Shown: positions 10,369-62,726, counted from the stretch's first letter. The stretch: DNA of 64,000 bases from Gemmatimonadaceae bacterium (GCA_036392515.1 DASVXU010000144.1:20385-84384), one strand, 5' to 3'. Numbers and translations are program-made. Notes: generated by a model not told the origin, from the letters alone.

Positions 10369-11859
10369 TCACTTGTCACTGATCACGACTCGCCGTCCGG
10401 GAGGCAGGACTCCATCGTCCCACACTCGCGTCGTCGCCACCGCGATGCCGCCGGCGGCGACCTCGATCCTGCCTAACGCGAGGCGGCGTGTCGGGGCGCC
10501 GGGAGAGGGCGCGTAGTCGATCGAGAGGTCGTGCGCGCCGGCGGGGAGCGTCACCCGCACCAGCGAGAGCTCGCCCGGGAGGAGCCGCCATTGCCGGGTG
10601 TCGGCGCGCTCCGTGAGGACGTTCAGCGCGTCCGCCGCCCAGCGCGTGACCGTCCCCGCGAGCTCTCCCTTCCTGTCCTCCATCCTGTCGGCGGCGGTCT
10701 TCGCCAGCGCCAGCTTCATCCCGGCTCGCAGCACGCCGCGCGTGAACGACGCGGCGCGCGAGCGGCGAAAGTCCGCCGCGACCGCGTCGCAGAGATCCGC
10801 GCTCATCGCGATCGGCCGCGGCGCCGCCGAGTCCACCACGAGCGATGCGCGCCAGGCCGGATGGTACGGGCGCTGGAGGCTCGTCCAGGCGACGGGAAGC
10901 AGATAGGCGATCTCGCGCGAGTCGTCGTTCATGCGGAGCTCGCGGTCGTCGTGCTCGTCGTGCCAGATGAAACGATCGCGGTCGCTCGCGATCCAGAGCA
11001 TCGCCCGCGCGCTGATCGCGGCGGCCGCGGCGAGCGTCTCCTCGGGCTTGCCGCCGAACTTGTCGAACTCGTCCTGGGTCACGGGGACGAGCACCAGCCG
11101 CGGCACCAGGTGCGCGACGTATCCGTGCTCGACGACGACGATCACGTCGCCCGTCGCGGGCTCGGCGGCCGGCCGCGTCGCGCGCGGGCGCCGTCCCTTC
11201 TTCGGCTCGGGGGGGAAGGGAAGCGCCGAGTCGCCGACGAGCGATCTCGCGACACGGTAGGACACCGCCGCGTCGTTCTTCTCGCCCGCCGCCTCGAATG
11301 CCGCGCCGGCGAGATAGTTCAACAGCGCTCGCGTTCGCGCGTCGACGCTGTCCTTCCGCGAGTCGAAGCTCTCGAGGAGCGCGCTCACCCGCCGCGCCTC
11401 CACCGCGGCGCCCTCGGCGTCCCCGCGTCGCAGGAAGTCGAGCATGCCGTAGTAGTTCATCATCAGCCGCTCGGTGCGCGACGGCTCGTACGGGAGCACG
11501 GCGTCGTTCGTCACCGCCGCCAGGAGATTCTTCGACGCGCTCTTCGTGTACCGGTCGTCGGCGAGCACCGCCGCGCGGTCGAGCGTCACCCCGCTCGTGT
11601 CGAAGCGGCCGGCGTAGTACAGCGCCGATGCCCGGTACAGCGACGCGAGCAGCTCGTCGCGCGGCGCGAAGCGTCCCTTCGCCGACACGAGGCCCAGCGC
11701 GTCCTCGAAGCGCCCGCCGGCGAACGACTGGCGCAGCGCGTAGTCGTCCTGGGTCAGACCCGCGCGCAGCACCTCCGGCGGGAGCGGTGGCCCCGAGTGA
11801 TGATGGAGACACCCGGTCGCCACCAGCGCGCCGACGAGCGCGGCCGCGACACCTCGCAT
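10369..11859 (-). CDS. Large lipoprotein, function unknown (COG3014-like, inference)
   Basis: 496 aa with signal plus lipobox MRGVAAALVGALVATGC and ordinary composition. It is the last gene of a four-lipoprotein cluster. Confidence 0.65.
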   Translation of the reverse strand: MRGVAAALVGALVATGCLHHHSGPPLPPEVLRAGLTQDDYALRQSFAGGRFEDALGLVSAKGRFAPRDELLASLYRASALYYAGRFDTSGVTLDRAAVLADDRYTKSASKNLLAAVTNDAVLPYEPSRTERLMMNYYGMLDFLRRGDAEGAAVEARRVSALLESFDSRKDSVDARTRALLNYLAGAAFEAAGEKNDAAVSYRVARSLVGDSALPFPPEPKKGRRPRATRPAAEPATGDVIVVVEHGYVAHLVPRLVLVPVTQDEFDKFGGKPEETLAAAAAISARAMLWIASDRDRFIWHDEHDDRELRMNDDSREIAYLLPVAWTSLQRPYHPAWRASLVVDSAAPRPIAMSADLCDAVAADFRRSRAASFTRGVLRAGMKLALAKTAADRMEDRKGELAGTVTRWAADALNVLTERADTRQWRLLPGELSLVRVTLPAGAHDLSIDYAPSPGAPTRRLALGRIEVAAGGIAVATTRVWDDGVLPPGRRVVISDK

Positions 11860-11865
11860 CGCCCG

Positions 11866-12687
11866 CTAGTGCTTCTCGAGGACGATGATCCGCTCCTTCG
11901 CGTGCGCGATCGCCTCCGCCTGCTTCGCGTACGCATCGCCGACCGCCTGGATGCGCTCGAGCTCCATCTGGTGCAGGAAGCGCTGGTAGCGCACGATCGC
12001 CTCGATCGGCCGGAGCTGCTTGTCGAGCACCGTCGCGATCCGGTACTCGAGCGTCGGATCGTTAGGCAGGAGGATGCTCGCGCGGTCGTAGCGGGCGAGC
12101 GCCGCGTCGAGGTCGCCGGCGGCGACGAGCATGTCCCCCTCGCGCACGAGCGCCTGCGCCGTCGCCCGCGCCTGCGCGTCGGCCGTCGCGTCGGCGGCGC
12201 GGGCGACGGTGCGGACACCGGTCGGCTCGGCGTAGGCGATCGCCGCGACCTCGCCCTTCTGCACCTGCACGAGCGCGACCGGGGCGACCATGTCGCGCGG
12301 CGTCTGTTCCATCCGCGCCGAGGTGTAGATCGCCGCGTCGCCGGCGCGCCGGATCGACCACGCGGCCGGCGTCGTCCGCGTCGCGGCCATGAGCTGCGTC
12401 TCGCTCATGCCGAGCGTCACCTCGCCGCGCGTCACCGCGGAGCAGACGTCGGGCGCGCAGCCCATCATCGCCGCCGCCATGATCGAGTCTCGCGCGTACA
12501 GCTCGCGCGCCTGCGCCGGGGCCGTGCGGTCACGCGCCGCGGCGACGGTGGAGTCGGCGCTCGGCGCGCGATCCCCCGTGCGGAGGATCGTCACAGGCTG
12601 CGGATCGAGGTGCTGCTGCGTGCACGCGACCGCGGCCAGCGCGAGCAGCGCGGCGGCGCGGGTCATCATCGGGGAGCTCATCGTCAT
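11866..12687 (-). CDS. Lipoprotein with TPR-like C-terminus, function unknown
   Basis: ORF 11866..12765 trimmed to the ATG at 12687 (MTMSSPMMTRAAALLALAAVACT). The C-terminal helical region reads AAGDLDAALARYDRASILLPNDPTLEYRIATVL. Confidence 0.6.
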   Translation of the reverse strand: MTMSSPMMTRAAALLALAAVACTQQHLDPQPVTILRTGDRAPSADSTVAAARDRTAPAQARELYARDSIMAAAMMGCAPDVCSAVTRGEVTLGMSETQLMAATRTTPAAWSIRRAGDAAIYTSARMEQTPRDMVAPVALVQVQKGEVAAIAYAEPTGVRTVARAADATADAQARATAQALVREGDMLVAAGDLDAALARYDRASILLPNDPTLEYRIATVLDKQLRPIEAIVRYQRFLHQMELERIQAVGDAYAKQAEAIAHAKERIIVLEKH

Positions 12688-12697
12688 GCCTCGCGGG

Positions 12698-13318
12698 TCA
12701 CAGTCCGAGACGCTTGCGGAGGATGTACTTCTTGATCTTGTGCTGCCCCATCCAGACCTTCGCATTCGACTCGAGGTCGACGAGCTGCGCGTCCACCTGG
12801 TAGAACACGACCTTCTCCTTCCCCTCGGAGTCCTCGATCGCCTGGATCTCGCCCTGCAGCATGTAGTTGGCGCCGTGCTCGTTCGCCATGCGCGTGCGCG
12901 TCGAGGCGCTCGCGTTCTGCTGCTGGTCGGCGCGCTCGGCGCGGACGTCGCCCCGCTCGGCGGCGCCGGCGACGACCTGCACCGCGCCGGAGGTGGTGAA
13001 GGCGCGCTCGAGATCGTTCACGAAGGTGCCGACGGGGATGTGCTCGTACGTCTTGTTCGTGAAATCACCGACGATGACGGTCGGCGCCGTCCCGCCGTGC
13101 GCGTCGCTGTAGCGGCGGACCCACCCGCCGTCCAGGCTCTGCCTGATCAGCTCGTTGGCCACGAGCCGGGAGTCGGTGTCGTTCCACCGGCCGGAGAGGT
13201 CGGTGACCGTCGCGGGGTCGATGCGGTTGACCTGCTTCGGGGAGCAGGCCGCGCCTAACGCGACGAGCGCGACGAGGGCCATGTGCCCCGCCGCGCCGAG
13301 AACTGTGGATTGCGCCAT
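12698..13318 (-). CDS. Penicillin-binding-protein activator LpoB-like lipoprotein (COG3417 family)
   Basis: The last 206 aa of ORF 12698..13819 carry the lipobox LGAAC. Motifs VIVGDFTNKT, ANYMLQGEI and YQVDAQLVDLESNAKVW resemble the LpoB/YcfM family. Confidence 0.7.
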   Translation of the reverse strand: MAQSTVLGAAGHMALVALVALGAACSPKQVNRIDPATVTDLSGRWNDTDSRLVANELIRQSLDGGWVRRYSDAHGGTAPTVIVGDFTNKTYEHIPVGTFVNDLERAFTTSGAVQVVAGAAERGDVRAERADQQQNASASTRTRMANEHGANYMLQGEIQAIEDSEGKEKVVFYQVDAQLVDLESNAKVWMGQHKIKKYILRKRLGL

Positions 13319-15634: not shown

Positions 15635-17587
15635 ATGTCCCCTGCCCTCGGACGCGTCGTCGCCACCGAGCGACGCCCGAATACCCCGCACGAGTTCCAC
15701 TTCTGGACCGCGCTCGACTCTCCGGTCGGGATCGGGACCATCGTGCGCGTCGAGGGGACGCAGCCGATCGAGAATCAGCTCCCGCAGATCTACGGCATCG
15801 TGGTCGAGGGGTTCAGCTACACCGACCTGCAGTCGCCGCTGCACGACGTGCTCGGCCACGACGGCTCCCCCGACGGCGCGTCGCTCGCGCCTACCGAGCG
15901 CGCCGAGATCCGGCTCTACACCGCCGCGGTGCTCCGGCAGCTTCCGGAGGAGCCGCTGCAGCCCGTGCCGATGGGGCGCGTCTACCTCGCGACCGACGAG
16001 GACGTCGCGGTCGCGCTGCGGATGGACGGCTACCTCAAGGAAGGCGCGCGCACCGGGATCCCGATCGGCGTCTACCGTGCCGGCGGCACCGACGCGCCGA
16101 TCTTTCTCGACGCGGACTTCCTCCTCGGCCCGGAGGCGGCGCACCTCAACATCACCGGCGTCTCGGGGCTCGCGACCAAGACGAGCGCAGTCGAGTGGCT
16201 GCTCCAGTCCATCTTCACGCACTTTCCTCCGCAGAAGGGATCCGTCGCCGCGGTCTGCTTCAACGTGAAGGGTCCGGACCTCTGCTTCCTCGACCAGCCC
16301 GGGAGCATCGACGAGCGCGACCGGGCGCTCTACGACAAGCTCGGCGTCCCCGCGAAGCCCTTCGAGCGGACGCAGTACTTCGCGCCGTACCACGCGAAGG
16401 GGCACGCGCTCAACACGCTCCGCTCGAACGACGCGCTCGCGTACAACGTCAGTCCCCTCACGTGGGGGCTGCACGAGGTGCTCCAGTACGCCGAGGTCCT
16501 GCTCAACAAGGACGACATCGACGCGAAGGCCGACGCGCTGATCGACTTCATCGCGCGCAACGTCGTCGGGCAGGAGTTCGCCGACCAGATCCTCTCGCGG
16601 GCGCATCGCGTGCAGTCGTTCGCGGATCTCGAGGCCTGGTTCCGCGATCTCCTCCGCGGCATGGAGGCGAAGAACGCCGAGAGCTGGCGGACGCACCACG
16701 TCGCGACCATCCGCAAGGTCCGGAACCGTCTGTCGAACATCTCGACGCGCTGCGCCGGGCTCGTCACCGACGACGGCGCGGTGAGCGACCTCCCCTTCGG
16801 CACCTTCGAGGACCGGACGGTGTACGTGATAGACGTCGCCGGACTCGAGGAGGACGCGCAGGACCTCGTCTTCGCCCGGGTCATCACCAAGCTCCGCGAA
16901 GCGCTCGAGAAGCGCGAGCTCGGCGTCAACCACGTCGTCGTCTTCGTCGATGAGCTCAACAAGTACGCGCCTAACGATGGGCAGGACACCTACGTCCGGA
17001 AGATGCTGCTCGACATCGCCGAGCGCGGCCGCTACCTCGGCCTCGTGCTCTTCGGCGCGCAGCAGTTCCGCTCGCAGGTGCATCGTCGCGTCGTCGGCAA
17101 CGCCGGCAGCGCGCTCTATGGGCGCATGGATGCCGACGAGCTGGCGACGCCCGGCTACGCCGTGCTGAGTCCCGCGACGCGCACCAAGCTCGCGACGCTC
17201 GAGAAGGGACAGCTGATGGTCCGTCATCCGCACTTCACGCAGCCGGTCTTCGTCCGCTTCCCGCGGCCGGCGATCATGCGCGGGCGCGACGGCGCCGAGC
17301 GCTTTCCCCAGGCGGCGACGCCGACGCTCGACCAGGCGATCCTCCGCTCGCTCCGCGCGCTCGACTCCTCGATCACCCTCCAGTGGGTGCAGGACGCGAT
17401 CGGGATCCACGAAGAGCAGGCGATCATCCGCGCGCGCAACGCCACCATCCGCGCCCGTCCCACCGACGTGAAGAGCTACTTCGTCTCGCAGCTTCCCGCG
17501 CTCGTCGCGCCGAGCGCTCCGCGTCCCCGTCCGGCGGGGATCGCGATCCGTTCCACGCCCTTCGACGATCCGTACGGGAACGGTTGA
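15635..17587 (+). CDS. herA: HerA-like hexameric ATPase/translocase
   Basis: The N-terminus is HAS-barrel-like (GRVVATERRPNTPHEFHFW...VGIGTIVRVEG). Walker B is VVVFVDELNKYAP, and there is LVLFGAQQFRSQV...GNAGSALYGRM. The P-loop is atypical (ITGVSGLATKTS). Confidence 0.8.
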   Translation: MSPALGRVVATERRPNTPHEFHFWTALDSPVGIGTIVRVEGTQPIENQLPQIYGIVVEGFSYTDLQSPLHDVLGHDGSPDGASLAPTERAEIRLYTAAVLRQLPEEPLQPVPMGRVYLATDEDVAVALRMDGYLKEGARTGIPIGVYRAGGTDAPIFLDADFLLGPEAAHLNITGVSGLATKTSAVEWLLQSIFTHFPPQKGSVAAVCFNVKGPDLCFLDQPGSIDERDRALYDKLGVPAKPFERTQYFAPYHAKGHALNTLRSNDALAYNVSPLTWGLHEVLQYAEVLLNKDDIDAKADALIDFIARNVVGQEFADQILSRAHRVQSFADLEAWFRDLLRGMEAKNAESWRTHHVATIRKVRNRLSNISTRCAGLVTDDGAVSDLPFGTFEDRTVYVIDVAGLEEDAQDLVFARVITKLREALEKRELGVNHVVVFVDELNKYAPNDGQDTYVRKMLLDIAERGRYLGLVLFGAQQFRSQVHRRVVGNAGSALYGRMDADELATPGYAVLSPATRTKLATLEKGQLMVRHPHFTQPVFVRFPRPAIMRGRDGAERFPQAATPTLDQAILRSLRALDSSITLQWVQDAIGIHEEQAIIRARNATIRARPTDVKSYFVSQLPALVAPSAPRPRPAGIAIRSTPFDDPYGNG

Positions 17588-18441
17588 TGGCGTCGCTCCA
17601 GCGCTCGCTCCAGCTCGGCCTCCTCGCCCTGGGAACCGCCGCTCCGACCATCGCCGCGCAGTCTCCGGCGACGGCGAACGGCGCGGTGCAGCTCGAGGTG
17701 CGTCCGCACGTCGGCGACACCGTCGCGGCGCGCCTCGAGCAGAGCGTCGAGATGACGGGGACGCGGCGCATCGGCGGGCGCGATTCCACGGCGCGCGTGA
17801 TGTCGTCGATGGTGATGCTCGCGCGCACGGTCGTCGAGAGCGTGGCGCCCGACTACTCCGTCGTCATGATGCGCACCGATTCGGTGCAGCTCTCGAGCAC
17901 CGACGATCACGCCGGCGAGATGCGCGCCGAGGCGGAGCGCGCGCTCCGCGGAACGACGTCGCGCCTTCGCCTGCTCCCCGACGGGACGGCGGAAGGGCTC
18001 GACGGATCGATGGGGGTGGACGGTGCCGCGCTGCTGGCGGTGATGCCCGGGACGCTGCCTAACGACCCGGTATCCGTCGGCGGGCGCTGGACGCGCACGA
18101 TGACGATCCCGGCCATGAACGCGGCGAAGGGGGCGGGGCAGGTGAAGACGACCTTCCGCCTCGACTCGGTGACCGCGGGCGGCCGCCTCGCCTGGATCTC
18201 GATGAAGGGGACGCTGCGCCGGGACGAGAGTGCTCCCCTCGCCGGAACGGGGGAGCGCGCCGGGGCGCTCAGCGGTTCGCTCGTCGGCGGGATGACCCTC
18301 GACCGTCGGCGCGGCTGGATCGTCGCGACCTGGACCGACATGACGGTGAAGTCCACCGTCACGACTCCCGGCGCGCCTAACGCCCCGCTGCGCGTCACCG
18401 TCCACGTGATGCAGCGGATGCGCGTCGACGACCGGGAGTGA
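17587..18441 (+). CDS. Secreted protein, function unknown, embedded in the herA-mre11 operon
   Basis: The ATG overlaps the herA stop (TGATG). The signal peptide is MASLQRSLQLGLLALGTAAPTIAAQSP. The composition is beta-rich (Thr/Ser/Val/Met). Confidence 0.65.
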   Translation: MASLQRSLQLGLLALGTAAPTIAAQSPATANGAVQLEVRPHVGDTVAARLEQSVEMTGTRRIGGRDSTARVMSSMVMLARTVVESVAPDYSVVMMRTDSVQLSSTDDHAGEMRAEAERALRGTTSRLRLLPDGTAEGLDGSMGVDGAALLAVMPGTLPNDPVSVGGRWTRTMTIPAMNAAKGAGQVKTTFRLDSVTAGGRLAWISMKGTLRRDESAPLAGTGERAGALSGSLVGGMTLDRRRGWIVATWTDMTVKSTVTTPGAPNAPLRVTVHVMQRMRVDDRE

Positions 18442-18599: not shown

Positions 18600-19793
18600 G
18601 TGCGACTCGTCCATCTCAGCGACCTCCATCTCGGCTTCCGCCAGTATCAACGGCTGACTCCCGCTGGCATCAACCAGCGCGAGGCGGACGTCGCGAAGGC
18701 GTTTCGCAACGCGATCGACAAGACCATCGAGCTCGCGCCGCAGCTCGTCGTCGTCGCCGGCGACGTGTTCCACAACGTCCGGCCGACGAACCCGGCGGTC
18801 CTCGTCGCGTTCGGGCAGTTCTCGCGGCTGCGCACGCACCTTCCCGACGCGAAGATCGTCATCGTCGCCGGCAATCACGACACGCCGCGCACCGCGGAGA
18901 CGGGATGCATCCTCCGCCTCTTCGAGGCGCTCGACATCAACGTCGTCGACGCGGCCGCGGAGCGCTTCAGCTTCCCCGAGCTCGAGCTCTCCGTGCTCGC
19001 GGTGCCCGACGTGCCCGGCGCGCGCCCGTCGCTCGTCCCCGACGCGAGCTTCCGCCACAACGTCCTGCTCCTCCACGGCGAGGTCGAGGGAGTGATCCCC
19101 GAGCAGGCGCGCGTCACCGACCGCGCCTCCGTCGCGATCACGAACGAGGAGCTCGGCGCCGCGCGCTGGTCGTACGTCGCGCTCGGCCACTATCACGTCT
19201 ACCGCGAGGTCGCGCCTAACGCGTTCTACTCGGGGTCGATCGACTACACGAGCGCCAACTCCTGGGGCGAGCTCGCGGAGGAGCGCGAGGCGGGGATCGG
19301 CGGGAAGGGGATCGTCGAGCATGACCTGGCGACCGGCACGCACCGCTTCCATCGCCTGCCCACCGTGCGCCGCTGGGTGGATCTGCCGCAGCTCTCGGCG
19401 CGCGGTCTCTCCGCCGCGGAGCTCGACGCCGCCATCCGCCGCTCGGTGGAGGAGTGCGACGGCGGGATCGACGAGCAGGTCGTCCGCATCCTCGCCCGCG
19501 ACGTCCCGCGCCACATCGCGCGCGACCTCGATCAGAAGGCGCTCCGCGAGTACCGGCGGCGCGCGCTGCACTTCCATCTCGACACCCGCCGCCCCGAGAT
19601 CATCCGGCTGCACGGCCACGGCTCCCCCGGGCGCCGTCCGTCGCTCCGCGACGTCGTGCGCGACAAGCTGCGCGGTCGCATCATCGAGTCCGATCTCTCG
19701 CGCGAGGCCCTCGTCGATCTTGGCATCCGCTACCTCGACGAGGTCGAGCGGGCGGAGATCGCGCTGCATCCGGTGAACGAGGGCGTGACGTGA
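18600..19793 (+). CDS. Mre11/SbcD-family nuclease
   Basis: It has the phosphoesterase motifs HLSDLHLG, VVAGDVFH, VAGNHD and ALGHYH. Confidence 0.9.
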   Translation: MRLVHLSDLHLGFRQYQRLTPAGINQREADVAKAFRNAIDKTIELAPQLVVVAGDVFHNVRPTNPAVLVAFGQFSRLRTHLPDAKIVIVAGNHDTPRTAETGCILRLFEALDINVVDAAAERFSFPELELSVLAVPDVPGARPSLVPDASFRHNVLLLHGEVEGVIPEQARVTDRASVAITNEELGAARWSYVALGHYHVYREVAPNAFYSGSIDYTSANSWGELAEEREAGIGGKGIVEHDLATGTHRFHRLPTVRRWVDLPQLSARGLSAAELDAAIRRSVEECDGGIDEQVVRILARDVPRHIARDLDQKALREYRRRALHFHLDTRRPEIIRLHGHGSPGRRPSLRDVVRDKLRGRIIESDLSREALVDLGIRYLDEVERAEIALHPVNEGVT

Positions 19794-52964: not shown

Positions 52965-52998
52965 GGTGGTGCTCCTCAGGTGGTGGGTACGGGGTAAG

Positions 52999-53016: not shown

Positions 53017-53031
53017 TAGCGCCTGCTGTCG

Positions 53032-53588: not shown

Positions 53589-53622
53589 TATCGGCGGCGC
53601 CGCGACGCAAGGGGGGCCGCCG

Positions 53623-53955
53623 TCAGCGCTGCAGCAGCCAGCGGATCCGCGAGACCGGCTGACGCCCGGGCTTCGCGTTGAGCTGCTTCAGCAGCTCGGG
53701 CTCGAGCAGCGAGAGCTCCGTCATCCATCCGTGCGTCGTCACCGCCACGAACAGCAGCCCGTCCTGCGTCACCGAGAGCGGCTTCGTCACCGCCGCGATC
53801 TGCGGGCCGACGAGCGACTCCCACTCCGGTACCACCGCCGCCTGCTCGACGCGCGGCGCGAGGCCGCTCTTCGCCAGGTAGCTCGCCAGCGCCTCGCCGA
53901 TCGACGCGGTCCTGTGCTGCTTCTCGTCCGGCTTCCGCCGCTCGCGGCGCGTCAT
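53623..53955 (-). CDS. DUF721 (DciA-like) protein
   Basis: The last 110 aa of ORF 53623..55137 start MTRRERRK...IGEALASYLAKSGL. It overlaps the recF stop by 4 nt, the usual position of DUF721. Confidence 0.72.
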   Translation of the reverse strand: MTRRERRKPDEKQHRTASIGEALASYLAKSGLAPRVEQAAVVPEWESLVGPQIAAVTKPLSVTQDGLLFVAVTTHGWMTELSLLEPELLKQLNAKPGRQPVSRIRWLLQR

Positions 53956-55076
53956 GCGGCCCCCGCCCGGATCCACGGCGTCAGCGCGCCGTGCTGCACC
54001 CGCCAACGTGCGAGCCGCGTCAGGCTGGGCGGGATGTCGCTCTCCCGGGGAACGGCGAGGATCGTCTGCCCCGCACCCTCGCCGGCGAAGAGCTCGAGGA
54101 TGCGCGCCGAGCGCCGCGCGTCCAGCTCGGCGAAGGGATCGTCGAGCAGCAGGAGTGGGGCGTTGTCGCGCTCCTGGCGCAGCGTCTCCTGCTCGAGGAC
54201 CCGCAGGGCGATCGCCGCGGTGCGCTGCTGCCCGGCCGAGCCGAAGGTCCGCAGCTCGCGGCCGTCGAGGGTGAGCTCGAGGTCGTCGCGATGCGGGCCG
54301 GCGTGCGTCAGGCCGCGGCGGAGGTCGAGCGAGCGCTTCGATTCGAGCGCGCGCGCGAGCGCGGCCGCGACGTCGTCGTCGCCGCCGTCGAGCGAGGTCG
54401 CGTAGCGCATCACCGCGCTGCCGCGCTCGCCGATCGCCTCGCAGACGCGCGCGAACCGTTCCTGGTGCGCGCGCACCCACGCGACGCGCGCGCTCCAGAT
54501 CCGCGCGCCGTGCTCGGCGAGCGCGGGCTCCCACACCGCGACGCGCGATTCGTCGCGCGCCGATCGGAATCCGTCGCGCAGCGCCGCGTTGCGGCGCGCC
54601 AGCGCGCCGCGGTACGACTGCAGCGCGGTGAGGTACGGGCGCGAGGTGAGCGCGAGGACGACGTCGAGGTATCGGCGACGCTCGCCCGGGCTCCCCGCGA
54701 CGAGCGCCGCGTCGCGCGGCGAGCAGAGCACGGAGGGAAGGGCGCCTAACGCGTCGGACAGCCGCGGCGGCTCCGCGCCGTCGAGCATGACCCGCTTCCG
54801 CTTCGTCGCCCGCTCGAAGCCGGCGCCGATGCCGTGCGCCCCGCGCGCGCCGACCGTCTCTGCGGCGATGTGGAATGCGGGCGCGCCGAAGCGCACGAGG
54901 TCCACATCGCGCGCGCCGCGTGCCGAACGGAGGAGCTGCAGGTAGTACGCGGCCTCGAGGAGGTTGGTCTTGCCGTGCCCGTTCTCCCCGACGACGACCA
55001 TCCCCTCCGGCGGGACCTCGAGCTCGACGCGCTCGAGGTTCCGGAAGTCGCGGACGGCGAGGCGCGCCAGGCGCAT
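53952..55076 (-). CDS. recF: DNA replication and repair protein RecF
   Basis: 374 aa with Walker A GENGHGKTNLLEA, the signature region SAGQQRT and Walker B LLLLDDPFAELD. Confidence 0.93.
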   Translation of the reverse strand: MRLARLAVRDFRNLERVELEVPPEGMVVVGENGHGKTNLLEAAYYLQLLRSARGARDVDLVRFGAPAFHIAAETVGARGAHGIGAGFERATKRKRVMLDGAEPPRLSDALGALPSVLCSPRDAALVAGSPGERRRYLDVVLALTSRPYLTALQSYRGALARRNAALRDGFRSARDESRVAVWEPALAEHGARIWSARVAWVRAHQERFARVCEAIGERGSAVMRYATSLDGGDDDVAAALARALESKRSLDLRRGLTHAGPHRDDLELTLDGRELRTFGSAGQQRTAAIALRVLEQETLRQERDNAPLLLLDDPFAELDARRSARILELFAGEGAGQTILAVPRESDIPPSLTRLARWRVQHGALTPWIRAGAA

Positions 55077-55081: not shown

Positions 55082-55882
55082 CTACCGGCCGGTGAAGTTC
55101 GGCGCGCGCTTCTCGAGGAAGGCGCGCGCGCCCTCACGCATGTCGGTCGTCGTCGCGCAGCGGCCGAAGTTCTCCGCCTCGAGCGCGATCGCCTCCTCGA
55201 GGGGGAGGTCGAGCCCGCGATCGACCGTCTCGATCGCCAGCGCGAGCGCGACGGGGCCGTTGGCGATCATCTGTCCCATCATCTTCCGCGTCGCCGCGAT
55301 GAGCTCCGCCGCCGGCACGACGGCGTTCACGAGACCGATGCGCAGCGCCTCCTCCGCGTCGATCGTCTCGCCGGTGAGGATGAGCTGCAGCGCCCGGCCC
55401 TTGCCCACGAGGCGCGGCAGCCGCTGCGTCCCGCCGTAGCCCGGGATGATGCCGAGCTTCACCTCCGGCTGCCCGAGCTTCGCCGCCTCCGAGGCGATCC
55501 GCACGTGGCAGGCGAGCGCCAGCTCGCACCCGCCGCCTAACGCGAAGCCGTTCACCGCCGCGATCACCGGCTTCGGCGACGTCTCGAAGCGACGGAACAC
55601 GTGCTGCCCGTGGTGCGCGAAGCGGCGCGCCTCCTCCTCCGTCAGCGTCGGGAACTGCGAGATGTCCGCGCCGGCCACGAACGCCCGCCCCGCGCCGGTG
55701 ACGATCACCCCCAGCACATCCGCGCTCGCGCGCGCACGGTCGATCGCCTCGCCCAGCCCGGCGAGCGTCGCCCGATCCAGCGCGTTCAGCCTGTCGGGGC
55801 GGTTGACGGTGATCGTCGCGATGCGGTCGGCGACCTCGTAGCTGACCGGGGACGAGGCGGCCGGGGAGGTGGGTGCGGTCAT
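55082..55882 (-). CDS. Enoyl-CoA hydratase (crotonase family)
   Basis: 266 aa with FVAGADI and AAVNGFALGGGCELALACH motifs. Confidence 0.9.
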   Translation of the reverse strand: MTAPTSPAASSPVSYEVADRIATITVNRPDRLNALDRATLAGLGEAIDRARASADVLGVIVTGAGRAFVAGADISQFPTLTEEEARRFAHHGQHVFRRFETSPKPVIAAVNGFALGGGCELALACHVRIASEAAKLGQPEVKLGIIPGYGGTQRLPRLVGKGRALQLILTGETIDAEEALRIGLVNAVVPAAELIAATRKMMGQMIANGPVALALAIETVDRGLDLPLEEAIALEAENFGRCATTTDMREGARAFLEKRAPNFTGR

Positions 55883-55986
55883 CGGTGTTCGGTGCTCGCC
55901 ATGAGGGGGGACGTCGCGGCGGAGGACGCCGGCCGCGAGCCCCGGAATGTAATCCCCGGGACTGCTTTTTGCCTTTCTCGCACGTC

Positions 55987-57018
55987 ATGAGCAGCGCTGC
56001 GCGCGAACGCTGGATCCTCCGCAAGGGCAGTCCCGCCAACGGCTTCCGCTACGAGACGGAAGACGGGAGGGCGGTGCGCGACGCGAAGACCCTCGCGCGC
56101 ATCGACGGCCTGCGCGTGCCGCCGGCGTGGCGCGACGTGCACCTCGCCGCGAGCCCGCGCAATTCCATCCAGGCGTGGGGCTTCGACGCGCGCGGACGCA
56201 AGCAGTACCGGTATCACGAGACCGCCACGAAGCGCGGCGAGCTGCGGAAGTACTATCGCGTGCGACAGCTCGGTCGCGATCTCCCGCGCATCCGACGCGT
56301 CCTCGCGGAACACGAGCGCCGCCGCGGTGCGACGCTCGAGCGCGTCGCCGCCGGCGTCCTCCGGCTGATCGCCGAGCGCTGCTTCCGGCCCGGCAGCGAT
56401 CGCTACGTGAAGGAGAACCGCTCCTTCGGCATCACCACGCTGCGAAAATCGCACGTGGCGATCGAGGGTGACGCGGTCGTCTTCGCGTTTCGTGGGAAGA
56501 GCGGGGTGAAGCAGCGGCATCGCGTCGTCGACCGCGAGGTCGCGCGCTTCGTCCGCACGCTGCTCGACACGCCGGGCACGCGCCTCTTCCGCTACGAGAA
56601 GGACGGCGAGTGGCACGATCTCGACGCGCGAACGCTCAACGACTACCTCCGCGATTCGCTCGGCTTTCCGTACACGGCGAAGGACTTCAGGACCTGGGGC
56701 GGGACGCTGCGTGCCGCGACCGTGCTCGCGGAGATCGGCCCTCCCCGAAGCATGACCGACGGGAAGCGCAACGTGGCCACGGTCATGCGTCTCGTCGCCG
56801 CGGAGCTGGGGAACACGCCGACGATCTGTCGCAAGTCCTACGTGCACCCGGTGATCCTCGAGCGCTACCTGGACGACGGAGAGACCATCGCCGAGCGGCT
56901 CGGCCGCGCCGGCGGAAATGGCCGTGCCCACACGCACACCGCCGAGGAGCGCGCCCTCGTGCGCTTCCTCGACGAGCATTTCCCCGAGCGGCGCAAGCGG
57001 CGACGCGTCGAGGCGTAG
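55987..57018 (+). CDS. DNA topoisomerase IB (poxvirus-like bacterial type)
   Basis: ORF trimmed to MSSAARERWILRKG. It has FRGKSG, TAKDFRTWGGT and the catalytic-tyrosine context CRKSYVHP. Confidence 0.85.
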   Translation: MSSAARERWILRKGSPANGFRYETEDGRAVRDAKTLARIDGLRVPPAWRDVHLAASPRNSIQAWGFDARGRKQYRYHETATKRGELRKYYRVRQLGRDLPRIRRVLAEHERRRGATLERVAAGVLRLIAERCFRPGSDRYVKENRSFGITTLRKSHVAIEGDAVVFAFRGKSGVKQRHRVVDREVARFVRTLLDTPGTRLFRYEKDGEWHDLDARTLNDYLRDSLGFPYTAKDFRTWGGTLRAATVLAEIGPPRSMTDGKRNVATVMRLVAAELGNTPTICRKSYVHPVILERYLDDGETIAERLGRAGGNGRAHTHTAEERALVRFLDEHFPERRKRRRVEA

Positions 57019-57056: not shown

Positions 57057-58166
57057 GTGCAAGCGTCCACGAGCGAAGCGACTCCCCACGTCATCGAGGC
57101 GGTCCGCTGGTCTCCGCGGGGCGACGCGGTGCGGATCATCGATCAGCGCCGCCTCCCGGCGGAGTACGTCGAGCGGGATCTGCGCACGCTCGACGAGGTG
57201 CGCGAGGCGATCGCGACCCTCGCCGTCCGCGGCGCGCCGGCGATCGGCGTCGCGGGCGCGATGGGGCTCGTGGTCTCGGTGAGCGCGCACGCGGAAGAGC
57301 CGCGCGAGCGCTTCGCGGCACGGCTGCGCGAGCACGCGGCGGCGATCCGCGCGACGCGGCCGACCGCGGTGAACCTCCCGTGGGCGATCGACCGCATGCT
57401 CGCGCGCGCCGCGCTCGAGCGCACGAGCGAGCCCGGCGCGCTGATCGCAGCGCTGCGCGACGAGGCGACGGCGATCCTCGAGGAGGATCGCACGATGTGC
57501 CGCCGGATCGGCGAGCACGGCGAGCGGCTCGTCGCCGAGCAGGCGCGCGTGCTCACACACTGCAACGCCGGCGCGCTCGCGACCGCGGGGATCGGCACCG
57601 CGCTCGCTCCGGTCTACGTCGCCGCCGAGCGGGGACGGAGCGTCGCCGTGTACGCCGACGAGACGCGCCCGCTCCTGCAGGGAAGCCGGCTCACCGCGTG
57701 GGAGCTCGCGCGCGCCGGGATCCCCGTCACCGTGCTGACGGACGGGATGGCGGCATCTCTGATGCGCGCGGGAAAGGTCGATCTCTGCATCGTCGGCGCG
57801 GACCGCATCGCGGCGAACGGTGACACGGCGAACAAGATCGGCACCTACGCGCTCGCCGTCGTCGCGCGGCACCATGACGTGCCCTTCTACGTCGCCGCGC
57901 CCAGCTCGACGATCGACCCGGCGGTGCCTGACGGTGAGGCGATCGTCATCGAACAGCGCAGCGCGGACGAGGTTCGCCGGGGCTTCGGGGTTCTCACCGC
58001 GCCGGAGGATGCGGCCGTATACAATCCGGCCTTCGACGTCACGCCGGCGGCGCTGATCAGCGGCTTCGTCACCGACCGCGGGATCGTGCGGCCACCATAC
58101 GACTTTCACGACTGGATCCCGCCGCTTCGAGCCGCGCGAGGGCACCGGCACGGCACGCGCGGGTAA
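57057..58166 (+). CDS. mtnA: S-methyl-5-thioribose-1-phosphate isomerase
   Basis: GTG start (VQASTSEATPHVIEAV). It belongs to the eIF-2B alpha/beta/delta family, with motifs RGAPAIGVAGA, THCNAGALAT and GADRIAANGDTANKIGTY. Confidence 0.88.
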   Translation: MQASTSEATPHVIEAVRWSPRGDAVRIIDQRRLPAEYVERDLRTLDEVREAIATLAVRGAPAIGVAGAMGLVVSVSAHAEEPRERFAARLREHAAAIRATRPTAVNLPWAIDRMLARAALERTSEPGALIAALRDEATAILEEDRTMCRRIGEHGERLVAEQARVLTHCNAGALATAGIGTALAPVYVAAERGRSVAVYADETRPLLQGSRLTAWELARAGIPVTVLTDGMAASLMRAGKVDLCIVGADRIAANGDTANKIGTYALAVVARHHDVPFYVAAPSSTIDPAVPDGEAIVIEQRSADEVRRGFGVLTAPEDAAVYNPAFDVTPAALISGFVTDRGIVRPPYDFHDWIPPLRAARGHRHGTRG

Positions 58167-59173
58167 TGAGCAGTGGCGACGCGCGGCGCGCGCCGCGCTC
58201 TCATGGGCGCGCGATCCGGGACACGAACGAGGGTGAGGGAGCGACGGTGGTGAAGCAGGCGGACGTGCTCGAGCTGCATCTCGAGCGGCTGGCGGCGTGC
58301 AGGAAGTGTGGGCATCCCGAGCCCATCGTACCGATTCTCTCGCGGGCGCGGCGGCCGCGGGTGATGCTCGTCGGGCAGGCTCCGGGGAAGGTCGAGATCT
58401 CGAGCCGGAAGCCCTTCGCTGGTCGGGCGGGGAAGACGCTCTTCCGGTGGCTGGAGGAGGCGGGTCTGAGCGAGGAGGAAGCGCGCGATCGCATCTATAT
58501 CTCGGCGATGACGCGCTGTTTCCCCGGCCCGCACCCGAGCGGGCGCGGCGATCGGGTCCCCACACGCGACGAGCTGTCGCTGTGTGGATCATGGCTCGAT
58601 GACGAGCTGAAGCTGATCCGGCCAGAGCTGATAATCCCCGTTGGGAAGCTGGCGATCGGCCGCTTCCTTCCCGAGGCGCCACTGGCCGAGGTGGTCGGGA
58701 AGGCGCATCGGGTGGAGCATGTGGGAGGGGAGAGCATCGCGATTCCGCTTCCGCATCCGTCGGGGGCGAGCAGCTGGATCCACGCCCCGGGCCATCGCGC
58801 GCTGGTGTCGAAGGCGTTACGGCTCATCGGCGGTCGGATGCGCGCGCTCGCGGCGGCGGTCATCCTCCTGCTGCTGGCCCCGGCCGCGGCACAGGCCCAG
58901 ACGCGCTCCGACGCCTGGATCGGGGCCGACAAGGTGAAACACTTTTTCATGTCGGCGCTCGTTCAGAGCATGGCCTATTCGGTGGCCCAGGTCACCACGC
59001 GCGCCCCTCGGTCGTCATTACTGTTGAGTGCGTCCGTCGCCAGTGCCGCCGTGGGTATTGGGAAGGAGATGCACGATCGCGGGTCGTACGGACTGTTCAG
59101 CGTCCGCGATCTCGCGTGGGACGCCGCGGGTGCGGGGGCAGCGAGCCTGATGCTCTCCCACACTCGACATTGA
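58166..59173 (+). CDS. Uracil-DNA glycosylase superfamily domain, in frame with a signal-peptide/DUF2279-like membrane domain
   Basis: The N-terminal part has CRKCG, GQAPG and HPSGASSW (UDG family 4/5-like). From the ATG at 58838 it reads MRALAAAVILLLLAPAAAQAQ, then GADKVKHFF...FSVRDLAWDAAG. There is no stop codon between the two parts. Confidence 0.7.
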   Translation: MSSGDARRAPRSHGRAIRDTNEGEGATVVKQADVLELHLERLAACRKCGHPEPIVPILSRARRPRVMLVGQAPGKVEISSRKPFAGRAGKTLFRWLEEAGLSEEEARDRIYISAMTRCFPGPHPSGRGDRVPTRDELSLCGSWLDDELKLIRPELIIPVGKLAIGRFLPEAPLAEVVGKAHRVEHVGGESIAIPLPHPSGASSWIHAPGHRALVSKALRLIGGRMRALAAAVILLLLAPAAAQAQTRSDAWIGADKVKHFFMSALVQSMAYSVAQVTTRAPRSSLLLSASVASAAVGIGKEMHDRGSYGLFSVRDLAWDAAGAGAASLMLSHTRH

Positions 59174-59590: not shown

Positions 59591-60046
59591 GTGAAGGCAC
59601 GAACGAAGTTTCTGATCGGTGGCGCGCTCGTGCTCTGCACGGCTGGCTATCTCATGGCCAGCTCGATCAAGCAGACCGGGGTCTACTACGTCACTCCCTC
59701 CGAGCTGGCGACCCACGTCGCCGCCGACAACAGCTTCCACGACACGGGCGTCAAGCTCGGCGCGCGCGTCGTCCCGGGCACGATCGTCCGCGATCCGGGT
59801 GGGAAGCTCTTCCAGTTCCGCGTCACCGACGGCACGACCACGTACCCGGTGATCTATCGCGGCATCGCACCCGACACCTTCACCGACGGCGTCGACGTCG
59901 TCGTTGAAGGACGCCTCGGGCGCGACGGCACCTTCCACGCGACGACGCTCCTCGCGAAGTGTGCGTCGCGCTATGAGAACGCCCCGCCGGGGCCGGGCCA
60001 GCCCGGCGGACACCCGGCCTCCGTTCCGAAGTCCAGCCAGTCGTGA
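59591..60046 (+). CDS. ccmE: Cytochrome c maturation haem chaperone CcmE, cysteine (CxxxY) variant
   Basis: The ORF opens at 59570 (TTG), and the GTG at 59591 gives VKARTKFLIGGALVL. It has an OB-fold body, with AKCASRYEN in place of the canonical AKHDENY haem-binding motif. Confidence 0.88.
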   Translation: MKARTKFLIGGALVLCTAGYLMASSIKQTGVYYVTPSELATHVAADNSFHDTGVKLGARVVPGTIVRDPGGKLFQFRVTDGTTTYPVIYRGIAPDTFTDGVDVVVEGRLGRDGTFHATTLLAKCASRYENAPPGPGQPGGHPASVPKSSQS

Positions 60047-62079
60047 TCCTCATCGGTGAGCTGTCGCTCTGGGTGGCCGTCGTCATGGCTGCCTGGACGA
60101 CGACCGTTTCCTTCGCCGGCGGCAGGCTGCGTCGCCCGGATCTGATCGCGAGCGGAGAGCGCGGGCTGTACGCGAGCTTCGCGCTCGTGCTGCTCGCATC
60201 GGTCGGGCTGTGGACCGCGCTGCTCACGCACGATTTCTCCCTCGAGTACGTCGCGTCGAACACCAGCCGCAACATGCCGCAGGTGTACGTCTTCGCGGCG
60301 TTCTGGGGCGGGCAGGCGGGATCGATGCTCTTCTGGGCGCTGATCCTCTCGTTCTACGGTACGCTGGCGGTGCTCACGAGCCGCGGCCGGTCGCGCGACC
60401 TGATGCCGTGGGTGACGGGGACGATCGGCGCGGTGCTGCTCTTCTTCCTGCTGACGACCTGTCTCGGCGCCAACCCCTACACGCGGCTGCCCTTCGTCCC
60501 GCTCGACGGGCGCGGGCTGAACCCGCAGCTGCAGAACCCGGGGATGGCGATCCACCCCCCGAACCTCTACCTCGGCTACGTCGCGACGACGATCCCCTTC
60601 GCTTTCGCGATCGGGTCGCTCATCACGCGGCGACTCGACAACGAGTGGCTCGGCGCGGTGCGGCGATGGGCGCTGGTGTCGTGGTTCTTCCTCACCGTCG
60701 GCATCACGTTAGGCATGTGGTGGGCCTACGTCGAGCTCGGGTGGGGCGGCTACTGGGCGTGGGATCCGGTCGAGAACGCCTCCTTCCTCCCCTGGCTGAC
60801 GGGGACGGCGTTCCTGCACTCGATCATGATCCAGGAGAAGCGCGGGATGCTCAAGAAGTGGAACGTCATCCTCGTGGTGGCGACCTTCCTTCTCGCGATC
60901 CTCGGCACCTTCATCACGCGCAGCGGGATCATCTCGAGCGTGCACGCGTTCGCGCAGTCGCCGGTCGGGACCTGGTTCGCGGGCTTCCTCATCGTCGCGA
61001 TCGGGATCACCGCCTTCCTCGTGACGACGCGGCTGCGCGATCTCGACGCGCCGGTGACGCTGGAGAGCGTCGTCAGCCGCGAGGCGGCGTTCCTCTACAA
61101 CAACCTCGTGCTCTGCGGGATCGCATTCTCCGTCCTCTGGGGGACGCTCTTCCCGATCATCAGCGAGTGGGTGCGCGGGACGAAGATCACGGTCGGTCCT
61201 CCGTTCTTCAACGCGGTGAACATCCCGCTCGGCCTCCTGCTGCTCGGGCTGACCGGAGTCGGCCCGCTGATCGCCTGGCGACGGGCGAGCTCGACCAACC
61301 TGAAGCGGCAGTTCGCGGCGCCGTCGATCGCCGGCGCGGCGACGGGGGCGCTCCTGCTCGCCGCGGGGATGCGCGACGCGTACGCGCTGGTGTCGTACAC
61401 GCTCGCCGGCTTCGTCATGGCGACGATCGTCCAGGAGTTCTACAAGGGGACGACCGCGCGGCGCGCGATCCACGGCGAGTCGGTTCCGGTCGCGCTCGTG
61501 CGTCTCGTGGCGCGCAATCGCCGCCGCTACGGCGGCTACATCGTGCACCTCGGCGTGGTCGTGCTCTTCGCGGCGTTCGCCGGTCTCGCCTTCAAGCGCG
61601 AGCTCGACGTCACGCTGCGCCCCGGAGAGAGCTACACCGCGAAGGATCCCTTCGGGCACGAGTGGCGCTTCGTGAGCCAGGGGATCTCGCGCTTCGAGGC
61701 GTCGAACCGCGACGTCGTTGCGATCGGGCTCGACGTCTTCCGCGACGGAAAGCGGATCGGCGTGATGACGAGCGAGCAGCGGCAATACCGTGACAGCCGC
61801 GGCAACCCGACCTTCAATCCGTCGACCGAGGTCGGGATCCATGGCACGCTGAAGGAGGACACCTACGTCGTGCTCGCGGGCGTGACGGGCGACGAGACCG
61901 CCGAGCTCCGGATCAACTTCAACCCGCTCGTGTGGTGGGTGTGGTACGGAGGCGCGATCATGGCGATCGGCGGGCTGATCGTGATGTGGCCGGCGGCCGA
62001 GCGGCGGAAGCCGGCGAGCGGCTACCGCGCGAGCCTCGCGCCGAGCGCCGAGCCGGCGCGCGCGGGAGCGGGGGCATGA
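60043..62079 (+). CDS. ccmF: Cytochrome c-type biogenesis protein CcmF
   Basis: 678 aa, polytopic, with the WWD motif WGGYWAWDPVEN. It overlaps the ccmE stop. Confidence 0.93.
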   Translation: MILIGELSLWVAVVMAAWTTTVSFAGGRLRRPDLIASGERGLYASFALVLLASVGLWTALLTHDFSLEYVASNTSRNMPQVYVFAAFWGGQAGSMLFWALILSFYGTLAVLTSRGRSRDLMPWVTGTIGAVLLFFLLTTCLGANPYTRLPFVPLDGRGLNPQLQNPGMAIHPPNLYLGYVATTIPFAFAIGSLITRRLDNEWLGAVRRWALVSWFFLTVGITLGMWWAYVELGWGGYWAWDPVENASFLPWLTGTAFLHSIMIQEKRGMLKKWNVILVVATFLLAILGTFITRSGIISSVHAFAQSPVGTWFAGFLIVAIGITAFLVTTRLRDLDAPVTLESVVSREAAFLYNNLVLCGIAFSVLWGTLFPIISEWVRGTKITVGPPFFNAVNIPLGLLLLGLTGVGPLIAWRRASSTNLKRQFAAPSIAGAATGALLLAAGMRDAYALVSYTLAGFVMATIVQEFYKGTTARRAIHGESVPVALVRLVARNRRRYGGYIVHLGVVVLFAAFAGLAFKRELDVTLRPGESYTAKDPFGHEWRFVSQGISRFEASNRDVVAIGLDVFRDGKRIGVMTSEQRQYRDSRGNPTFNPSTEVGIHGTLKEDTYVVLAGVTGDETAELRINFNPLVWWVWYGGAIMAIGGLIVMWPAAERRKPASGYRASLAPSAEPARAGAGA

Positions 62080-62726
62080 GACGCGAGCTCTCGCGCCGCG
62101 AGGCGCTCCGCTGGGCGGCCGCTGGCGCCGCGCTGCTCGTCACGCGCGGCCTCGCCGCGCAGTCGGCGTCGACCCGCGACAGCACGGGCACGCCTAACGG
62201 TCCGACCGACGGTGCGTCGGGGTCGAATCTGTTCTCGATGAACCAGGGCGCGGCGCGCACGGTGCATCGGCCGCCGAAGCCGGGCGTCACGAAGCGCATC
62301 AGCGACGACGAGCGCAACGAGACCGAGAAGAAGCTCCGCTGCCAGTGCGGGTGCACCCTCGACATCTACACCTGTCGCACGACGGACTTCGCCTGCGAGG
62401 TGTCGCCGGCGATGCATCGCGACGTCATGGCCCTCGTCGAGGGCGGCTACGACGCGCAGGAGATCATCGACGCCTTCACCCAGACCTACGGGGAGAAGGT
62501 GCTGATGGCGCCGACGAAGAAGGGTTTCAACCTCGTGGGTTGGGGGATGCCCTTCGGTGCGCTGCTCGTCGGCGGGGGAATCCTCACGACGCTCCTCCGG
62601 CGGTGGCACCGTCGCGCGATGAATGTTCGCCCGGTCGCGGCCACGCCGACTCCGATGGCCGGTGTCGACGCGACCGATGAGGAACTGCGCCGGATCGAGG
62701 CCGCGGTACGAGGGGACGAAGGGTGA
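62076..62726 (+). CDS. ccmH: CcmH-like thiol-redox protein (variant CxCxC motif, Tat-like signal)
   Basis: The ATG overlaps the ccmF stop. It starts MRRELSRREALRWAAAGAALLV (twin-arginine-like). LRCQCGC replaces the canonical LRCxxC, and there is a C-terminal TM helix. Confidence 0.8.
   Translation: MRRELSRREALRWAAAGAALLVTRGLAAQSASTRDSTGTPNGPTDGASGSNLFSMNQGAARTVHRPPKPGVTKRISDDERNETEKKLRCQCGCTLDIYTCRTTDFACEVSPAMHRDVMALVEGGYDAQEIIDAFTQTYGEKVLMAPTKKGFNLVGWGMPFGALLVGGGILTTLLRRWHRRAMNVRPVAATPTPMAGVDATDEELRRIEAAVRGDEG

Follow-up and report, generated by a model that had tools for sequence, protein, structure and literature searches.

The non-palindromic octamer GCCTAACG, with its reverse complement CGTTAGGC, is a hyper-abundant word in a 64,000-nucleotide stretch of DNA, of 70.3% G+C, from an uncultured member of the Gemmatimonadaceae (GCA_036392515.1, DASVXU010000144.1:20385-84384), referred to below as the window. 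It exceeds the protein-coding expectation 30- to 50-fold in some soil Gemmatimonadaceae, among them the cultured Gemmatirosa kalamazoonensis, and by analogy with the DNA uptake sequences (DUS) of Neisseriaceae and the uptake signal sequences (USS) of Pasteurellaceae it is tentatively read here as a lineage-specific genomic word spread by biased DNA uptake. An exact-match search of both strands of the window returned 19 copies, GCCTAACG standing 12 times and CGTTAGGC 7 times on the plus strand, at precisely the places given in a preliminary description of the sequence. The expectation voiced there that chance would supply only a few copies is likewise borne out, in that 100 dinucleotide-preserving shuffles averaged 0.88 copies and reached 3 at most. 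That description had also named a codon-aware null as the comparison that could undo its claim. When synonymous codons were shuffled 500 times within each of 43 curated window genes, with protein sequences and per-gene codon counts held fixed (counts that include the TTA and CCT codons contributed by the motif itself), the mean was 0.64 and the maximum 3, and the excess stands.

The core of the word has sharp limits. Of the 20 instances of CCTAAC in the window, 19 belong to a complete octamer, and the AT-rich one-base variants of the word occur 0-1 times each. A purine follows CGTTAGGC at 17 of its 19 sites (equivalent to a pyrimidine before GCCTAACG) and G precedes it at 10 of 19, much as first described; apart from that pyrimidine, the window flanks show codon periodicity alone. 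The flanks are unrelated, and thus the word does not belong to a longer repeat or a mobile element. On the evidence of Pfam searches, translations and an analysis of G+C content at third codon positions, every one of the 19 copies is coding and is read as CG-TTA-GGC (Leu-Gly; 12 copies) or G-CCT-AAC-G (Pro-Asn; 7 copies). The first of these readings calls on TTA, which in motif-free relatives is the rarest leucine codon (0.2 per 1000 codons), in keeping with the strong disfavor noted originally, and of the 13 TTA codons that the window's high-confidence genes contain, 9 sit inside the word. The initial impression that copies are always genic and confined to two reading frames holds throughout the window and fails in relatives, which contain copies in other frames and in non-coding DNA.

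The word is restricted to certain lineages of the family. With the window's HerA-like protein as query, 80 syntenic loci (1.18 Mb; designated by L numbers) were collected, nearly all titled Gemmatimonadaceae, Gemmatimonadales or Gemmatimonadota, the closest having 95% identity in this protein. The word ranks first among octamers in the window and also in L001, L002, L004, L019, L026 and L051 and is enriched in L003 and L012; altogether, it is the leading octamer in about 15 related genomes, at 5-10 copies per 10 kb. Almost all the other syntenic loci contain no copy in up to 22 kb. Motif-positive MAGs (metagenome-assembled genomes) include JABFXM01, JANMAM01, JBKJQR01, DATEPP01, DASXPH01 and DATFBY01, and motif-free sister MAGs include CAWJXW01 and CAVTOB01. 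Motif-positive DNA holds 5.1-5.7 copies per 10 kb, as against 0.02 in 69 other Gemmatimonadaceae (1.01 Mb) and 0.07 in more distant metagenome loci (0.74 Mb), the metagenome scan having returned almost solely motif-free distant relatives. The loci L161-L167, fetched through protein homologues, are all positive, as is every sampled locus with a HerA identity to the window of 81% or more. In a neighbor-joining tree of HerA, the close relatives among the positives group in one clade, other positives make up a second clade surrounded by negatives, and the rest are single tips, a patchiness that is provisional because the tree rests on this single gene. Gene calls for plasmid loci and for those from MAGs are compositional heuristics, except in L163-L167, for which the collection's own calls were used.

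Copies are also abundant on the megaplasmids of G. kalamazoonensis KBS708. Plasmid 1 (NZ_CP007129.1; 1,106,233 bp, 72.7% G+C), which was read complete as L171-L193, contains 778 copies (374 and 404 by strand; 7.0 per 10 kb) where order-1 and order-2 Markov models predict 15-16, an observed-to-expected ratio of 53; by raw count, the word ranks 89th among 26,218 octamers. A few percent of these copies are duplicates, because the plasmid carries a 53-kb tandem duplication. Its 532 open reading frames (ORFs) hold 396 copies, compared with 13.7 +/- 4.4 after synonymous shuffling, and the word accounts for 234 of the 302 TTA codons on the plasmid. The first 50 kb of plasmid 2 contain 20 copies where 0.69 would be expected.

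The arrangement of the copies on plasmid 1 displays no replication polarity. Cumulative GC skew reaches a maximum near 375 kb and a minimum near 1,025 kb, and the leading strand bears 372 copies of GCCTAACG and 406 of CGTTAGGC; the strand split across the syntenic loci is 50:39. Gaps between neighboring copies are evener than random (coefficient of variation 0.88, Kolmogorov-Smirnov p = 6e-6), with a deficiency of short gaps. The largest motif-free stretch, 10.9 kb at 1,021,207-1,032,069 (L191 21207-32069), coincides with the GC-skew minimum and encodes ParB together with a weak match to a replication initiator (RPA). It is probably the plasmid's origin and partition module, the part of plasmid 1 that is most likely of foreign origin. 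The second-largest gap contains a SusC/SusD-like pair.

Comparison of orthologous codons reveals that copies arise by point substitution, in some cases silent (CCG to CCT) and in others with a change in the protein (Gln-Gly to Leu-Gly). The copy at window position 19214 is common to L001-L004 and L012, whereas motif-free genomes read GCCGAACG or GCCCAACG there, which amounts to a purely synonymous recoding of CCG/CCC to the rare CCT. At position 20859, motif-free orthologues mostly have CG-CAG-GGC (Gln-Gly), and so the copy required a Gln-to-Leu change. The conservation at orthologous codons for which the preliminary description proposed a test is apparent between close genome pairs, in which 16 of 21 sites are retained as compared with fractions of about 0.2-0.37 for random octamers. 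Between clades almost no sites are shared, positions turning over at larger distances, and density varies up to 3-fold between near relatives. Thus, the word is continually created and preferentially kept, but its places are not fixed. In positive genomes it occupies 20-43% of compatible [SPTA]-Leu-Gly and Pro-Asn-[VADEG] sites, versus at most 1.5% in negatives, and the encoded tripeptides are themselves enriched ([SPTA]LG 1.27-fold and PN[VADEG] 1.5-fold, with reverse-order controls at about 1).

Non-coding DNA is richer still in the word. On plasmid 1, where DNA lacking codon periodicity (about 12% of the replicon) is taken as non-coding, the density in such DNA is 14.4 per 10 kb versus 6.0 in periodic DNA, a 2.4-fold excess. 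About 15-25% of copies in relatives are non-coding or overlap a stop codon, and independent gene calls on relatives place 9 of 57 outside genes or on stop codons. Among plasmid 1 copies outside called ORFs, 16% fall within 10 nt of an ORF end, compared with 1.7% of random outside positions. The word supplies the stop codon of 48 of the 532 ORFs, furnishing 24 of 51 TAA stops as GCC-TAA-CG and 24 of 114 TAG stops as CGT-TAG-GC, and motif-supplied stops are found in MAG loci as well (L164 10945, L165 6455, L166 4754 and L167 13843). Non-coding copies on plasmid 1 have a mild flank preference for G at -3 and a pyrimidine at -1. Some intergenic copies occupy the tip or stem of strong hairpins after stops or between convergent genes (L166 4655-4705, dG -38.7 kcal/mol, z -5.2; L019 11972-12016, dG -14.8 kcal/mol, z -3.4), which are terminator-like and lack an obvious T-run; the overall shift in hairpin stability on plasmid 1 is small (minimum free energy -23.2 vs -21.5 kcal/mol). 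A 12-bp tandem array, (CGTTAGGCGCGG)n, at about 1,005,369-1,005,436 of plasmid 1 (in L191) has six consecutive motif copies, and other direct motif pairs on this replicon are spaced 7-23 bp apart. Taken with the codon-aware null, the use of both strands and the unrelated flanks, the intergenic copies uphold the early judgment that the word is neither a protein motif, a codon habit nor a mobile element, and every test run here supports its description as a selected word in double-stranded DNA.

Some lineages have words of their own that differ from GCCTAACG by one or two bases or extend it. In L080, a Gemmatimonadales MAG (JBBQHX010000013.1, 1-21063) from which GCCTAACG is absent, GCCTGACG/CGTCAGGC occurs 25 times against about 1.4-2.1 expected, at lineage-specific positions where other genomes differ, in four reading frames and often followed by A. 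The same GCCTGACG variant is present 8 times in 17 kb of L057. Clade B (L012, L019 and L026) has 9 copies of GCATAACG in 42 kb, compared with about 0.1 per 10 kb in negatives, and in L051, where 'TAACGAGT' is enriched, 4 of the 7 motif copies have the longer form GCCTAACGAGT. The word is thus spoken in lineage-specific dialects (GCCTGACG, GCATAACG and the GCCTAACGAGT extension). One-off variants on plasmid 1 are enriched mainly at the outer positions (GCCTAACA, 77 copies; GTCTAACG, 35; GGCTAACG, 30; ACCTAACG, 14), and in motif-positive genomes the one-step neighbors GCCTGACG and GCCTCACG are 2.6- to 2.8-fold enriched, not depleted.

The reading-frame bias is real, not absolute and only partly explained. 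About 13-20% of in-gene copies in relatives sit in the other two stop-free frames, leaving a two-frame preference of about 87%. On plasmid 1, CG-TTA-GGC is represented by 243 copies that fill 26% of compatible sites and G-CCT-AAC-G by 130 that fill 43%, while GC-CTA-ACG and C-GTT-AGG-C have 28 copies each, at occupancies of 7% and 4%, respectively; frame ratios in MAGs are similar. Several candidate causes were rejected. Opportunity can be dismissed, since contexts for Val-Arg and Leu-Thr occur as often as the ones used, and codon rarity fails in that TTA is rarer than CTA and far rarer than GTT or AGG, yet its frame is the most used. Mutational distance is no better, GCCTGACG and GCCTCACG being one synonymous step away yet unconverted; tolerance at position 5 is weakly supported (in the Leu-Thr frame, GCCT[GC]ACG shows a 1.5-fold rise that is not significant). 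A hidden-stop ("ambush") logic does not separate used from unused frames, since each stop-free frame has one off-frame stop. We infer that most copies were made by amino-acid replacement at tolerant positions that accept small, cheap, loop-friendly residues (Pro, Asn, Gly and Ala). Frame occupancy follows the order of the amino-acid biosynthetic costs reported by Akashi and Gojobori. The same tendency is on record for DUS and USS (bioRxiv 10.1101/2025.10.24.684340), and the flank preferences of non-coding copies may provide a second partial explanation.

How biased uptake, the likeliest single explanation although somewhat less probable than not, could give rise to this pattern can be outlined in three steps, in which a genome-wide directional process would act on the double-stranded word and write it wherever the sequence tolerates it. 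First, a DNA receptor of the competence machinery would prefer fragments bearing the word. Alleles that gain a copy by mutation would then be over-transmitted through transformation and homologous recombination, a form of molecular drive, and copies would build up on all replicons and both strands until balanced by protein cost. The scheme presupposes uptake as the driving step, competence in these bacteria and the existence of such a receptor. Its more specific form, in which GCCTAACG would serve some Gemmatimonadaceae, and GCCTGACG at least one lineage, as a word for DNA uptake or self-recognition, is put forward with slightly greater reserve. No mechanism other than biased DNA uptake plus recombination, as in DUS and USS, has been proven for comparable non-palindromic words. 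Many genomic hallmarks of that mechanism recur here, namely the copy number, the occurrence on both strands in the absence of polarity, the non-coding excess, the frame bias, the enriched tripeptides, the dialects and the even spacing. In addition, a second copy on one and the same fragment would bring diminishing returns and so produce even spacing, which a purely intracellular repair drive would not explain.

Several considerations weigh against uptake. A literature search found no member of the Gemmatimonadota known to be naturally transformable and no paper that links the phylum to uptake sequences, and neither a receptor nor a competence gene was found within the window. The patchy distribution on the HerA tree calls for several losses, or else for the determinant to have been transferred horizontally. 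Given that the most-used frame needs the rarest leucine codon, either the force is strong or the bias has another cause. Moreover, close motif pairs among the 778 copies on plasmid 1 comprise 3 inverted and 18 direct pairs, such that terminator-type inverted pairs are rare. Finally, every supporting signature could also come from another genome-wide drive. The probability left by uptake and by the explanations considered below is assigned to mechanisms not yet imagined.

It is conceivable, if rather unlikely, that the word is instead recognized by an abundant, sequence-specific DNA-binding protein whose role is genome-wide and does not depend on orientation, for example in chromosome or nucleoid organization or as a mark of "self" for a nuclease or defense system, with copies kept by selection. 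An array of this sort would account for the evener-than-random spacing and the coverage of the replicon without large gaps, for the presence of copies on a chromosome-type window and on both megaplasmids, for the preferential retention of sites between close relatives and for the sharply defined 8-bp core. However, on general population-genetic grounds, of the sort raised for USS, thousands of sites of tiny effect would be hard to maintain against strong GC pressure. The fast positional turnover between clades, the 3-fold variation in density between close lineages and the lack of any such word in most of the family also speak against it.

Less probable again is a drive of the type that Elhai proposed for the highly iterated palindrome (HIP1) of cyanobacteria, in which sequence-specific modification (for example, 5-methylcytosine) and a mismatch-correcting nuclease that resolves near-cognate heteroduplexes to the word would create and maintain copies inside the cell. 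The excess is comparable to that of HIP1, which is 15- to 300-fold (PMC5861425); the patchy distribution and one-base alternative word recall the "alternate HIPs" that track methyltransferases (PMC4390886); and the enrichment of one-off variants mainly at outer positions fits as well. Nevertheless, the word is non-palindromic, its neighbors GCCTGACG and GCCTCACG are enriched rather than depleted, repair leaves the even spacing unaccounted for, and the window contains no methyltransferase or Vsr-type gene. A crude regular-expression screen of plasmid 1 for DNA methyltransferase motifs gave no match and is too crude to weigh as evidence. The single-molecule real-time (SMRT) methylome of G. kalamazoonensis comprises only RGATCY, ATGCAC and CCAGN7TCA, each >99% methylated (PMC3974934). 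None of these three N6-methyladenine (m6A) motifs overlaps the word, which speaks against methylation of its adenines in this organism. The earlier suggestion of a modification target is thus disfavored for m6A, and probably also for N4-methylcytosine, and could still apply to 5-methylcytosine, which SMRT sequencing detects poorly.

A polar signal read by RecBCD/AddAB or FtsK, like Chi or the FtsK-orienting polar sequences (KOPS), had also been proposed, and the word does share with these an over-represented, non-palindromic 8-bp form, and the window contains recombination genes; such a signal would be oriented with replication, and the near-equal leading-strand split over all copies of a complete replicon with clear GC-skew extremes, together with the mixed orientations in the window (12:7) and the syntenic loci, makes it very improbable. 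The enrichment of Chi lies an order of magnitude below the roughly 50-fold excess attained here with the rarest codon. There is next to no chance of a coding artefact (a usual dipeptide encoding, a repeated protein motif, a TTA-based translational signal or part of a mobile element), for which the two-frame, all-genic pattern of the window would speak, in view of the synonymous shuffles of the window and of plasmid 1, the encoding of the same proteins as CTC-GGC or CCG-AAC in motif-free relatives, the use of both strands, and the copies that are denser in non-coding-like DNA and straddle stop codons.

The individual copies in the window and their host genes are listed in Table 1.

Table 1. Copies of the word and its one-off variant in the window, with reading, host gene and state in relatives
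Feature	Position	Strand	Reading	Host gene	Remarks
Motif copy	10471-10478	+	CG-TTA-GGC on - strand (Ala-Leu-Gly)	496-aa hypothetical gene, 10369-11859	Kept in L001
Motif copy	12060-12067	-	G-CCT-AAC-G (Pro-Asn, 'LLPNDP')	TPR-containing gene, 11866-12765 (-)	Orthologous site CGTTCGGA in L001, CGTTAGGG in L004
Motif copy	13253-13260	+	CG-TTA-GGC, in signal peptide/lipobox ('VALGAAC')	LpoB-family lipoprotein gene (-)	Kept in L001, absent from L004
Motif copy	16969-16976	+	G-CCT-AAC-G (Pro-Asn)	HerA-like gene, 15635-17587 (+)	Orthologues in 80 genomes CCG-AGC, CCG-AAC, CCG-GGC and similar; motif in window and L001 only
Motif copy	18057-18064	+	G-CCT-AAC-G	DUF6263 gene (ends 18441, +)	
Motif copy	18375-18382	+	G-CCT-AAC-G	Same DUF6263 gene (ends 18441, +)	Kept in L001
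Motif copy	19214-19221	+	G-CCT-AAC-G	Mre11-like phosphoesterase gene, 18600-19793 (+)	
Motif copy	20859-20866	-	CG-TTA-GGC (Leu-Gly)	Rad50/SbcC-like gene, 19790-22261 (+)	
One-off variant CGTTAGGT	22251-22258	+		3' end of Rad50-like gene	Present as first described; a single copy is at chance level (at least 1 in 30 of 100 shuffles)
Motif copy	23137-23144	-	CG-TTA-GGC	GNAT acetyltransferase gene, 22266-23240 (+)	Orthologues CTC-GGC, ATG-GGC or TTC-GGC
Motif copy	25313-25320	-	CG-TTA-GGC	Short-chain dehydrogenase gene, about 25186-25875 (+)	
Motif copy	32050-32057	+	CG-TTA-GGC, close to 3' end	V4R-domain gene, 32038-32727 (-)	
Motif copy	39509-39516	-	CG-TTA-GGC	Pyrimidine-nucleoside phosphorylase (DeoA-like) gene, 38785-40119 (+)	
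Motif copy	44929-44936	+	G-CCT-AAC-G	DUF5916 gene, 43163-45784 (+)	
Motif copy	46901-46908	-	CG-TTA-GGC	Pyridoxal phosphate-dependent decarboxylase gene, 46597-48096 (+)	Metagenome contig L081 encodes an identical protein and has one motif copy somewhere on the contig
Motif copy	51866-51873	+	CG-TTA-GGC	Glyoxalase-family gene, 51440-52393 (-)	
Motif copy	54744-54751	+	CG-TTA-GGC	recF, 53952-55076 (-)	
Motif copy	55535-55542	+	CG-TTA-GGC	Enoyl-CoA hydratase gene, 55082-55882 (-)	
Motif copy	60707-60714	-	CG-TTA-GGC	ccmF, 60043-62079 (+)	
Motif copy	62192-62199	+	G-CCT-AAC-G ('GTPNGP')	CcmH-like gene (ends 62726, +)	

Other features of the window deserve brief mention. The HerA-like gene encodes a 650-aa protein, termed "HerA-like ATPase" in some sources, that is without a Pfam match and shows 73-95% identity family-wide; in the window and in loci with gene calls, it resides upstream of genes for the DUF6263 protein, the Mre11-like phosphoesterase and the Rad50/SbcC-like ATPase. 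Both gyrB and recF lie on the minus strand within 49322-55076, and cumulative GC skew turns near 55 kb, in the region of about 54-58 kb, which may mean that the chromosomal origin is close; dnaA and dnaN were not seen in the window. A gene of the uracil-DNA glycosylase superfamily (58166-59173, +) is located next to one for a bacterial type IB topoisomerase (55873-57018), with no evidence linking either to the word; mismatch glycosylases are of interest here in that a repair drive could involve them. Short tandem arrays of (GACCCCC)n and (CCGGGAGT)n occupy 31998-32034 and 37801-37832, and similar ones, with units of 7-14 bp (mostly 7-8) that differ by lineage, such as (CCGTTCA)n, (ACCCGACA)n and (CTAGACAG)n, are present in relatives (L056 1-50 and 908-1044; L033 20851-20930; L005 1513-1608; L065 2644-2815; L069 234-600; L009 2569-2712). 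The other octamers that seem over-represented in relatives are local tandem arrays rather than dispersed words.

Hyper-abundant selected words are otherwise known from few groups, namely DUS in Neisseriaceae, USS in Pasteurellaceae and HIP1 in cyanobacteria, and the present word adds a third, independent case, whose sequence is new and whose carriers belong to a major phylum of soil bacteria. Sister lineages that lack it serve as natural controls, and a one-base dialect and a cultured, fully sequenced carrier, G. kalamazoonensis KBS708, are at hand. It thereby makes testable whether such words owe their origin and maintenance to drive or to selection, and whether abundant soil bacteria undergo sequence-selective transformation. 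As a practical matter, the word can act as a marker for binning or assigning Gemmatimonadaceae contigs and as a flag for foreign DNA, and it could become a handle for genetic tools; we know of no genetic system for the phylum Gemmatimonadota. In agreement with the original statement that no role had been described, a literature search found either spelling only in primers and oligonucleotides, and the Gemmatirosa genome paper does not mention the word (PMC3974934). A survey from October 2025 placed uptake sequences only in two proteobacterial families (bioRxiv 10.1101/2025.10.24.684340). If the uptake reading is true, this would be the first uptake or self-recognition word outside the Proteobacteria, belonging to an abundant, mostly uncultured soil phylum with its own dialects, and frequent natural transformation in these bacteria would be implied.

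Among known systems, Chi (GCTGGTGG) and KOPS (GGGNAGGG) are likewise over-represented non-palindromic octamers, from which the present word differs in lacking replication-strand skew. HIP1 (GCGATCGC) is closer, as an octamer with sites conserved above expectation, quasi-regular spacing and alternative words in some lineages (PMC5861425, PMC4390886). However, HIP1 is a palindrome that orphan methyltransferases modify and that shows enrichment in each of the three frames, whereas the word described here reads differently on its two strands and is concentrated in one codon phase.

The likeness extends further in the case of USS (AAGTGCGGT or ACAAGCGGT), many copies of which also reside within genes, with a roughly 2- to 3-fold non-coding excess, strong frame bias and tripeptide enrichment. 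The density of USS in H. influenzae is about 0.8 per kb, and that of the present word is 0.3-1 per kb. Even spacing of USS was reportedly described by Karlin et al. in 1996. USS possess AT-rich flanking segments, in contrast to the essentially unconstrained flanks here, and belong to another phylum. The dedicated DNA receptor is ComP in Neisseria and, by prediction, ComN in Pasteurellaceae. For both USS and DUS, frame bias and tripeptide enrichment have been described (PMC2817400; bioRxiv 10.1101/2025.10.24.684340), the bias tracking preferred codons (PMC2817400), and a large share of copies is held in terminator inverted-repeat pairs (bioRxiv 10.1101/2025.10.24.684340).

In relation to DUS (core GCCGTCTGAA), GCCTAACG is unrelated in sequence and phylum, being a variant of neither GCCGTCTGAA nor AAGTGCGGT or ACAAGCGGT, and its core is 8 bp rather than 10-12 bp. 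It also differs in the rarity of inverted-repeat terminator pairs, in a most-used frame that needs the rarest codon, and in that a ComP-type receptor and a competence phenotype are known for Neisseria and none are known here. In other respects, the two correspond closely: each is a short, non-palindromic word present in thousands of copies on both strands without polarity, each is lineage-specific with dialects of one or two bases and is denser outside genes, and each, where it does fall within genes, combines reading-frame bias with enrichment of the encoded peptides.

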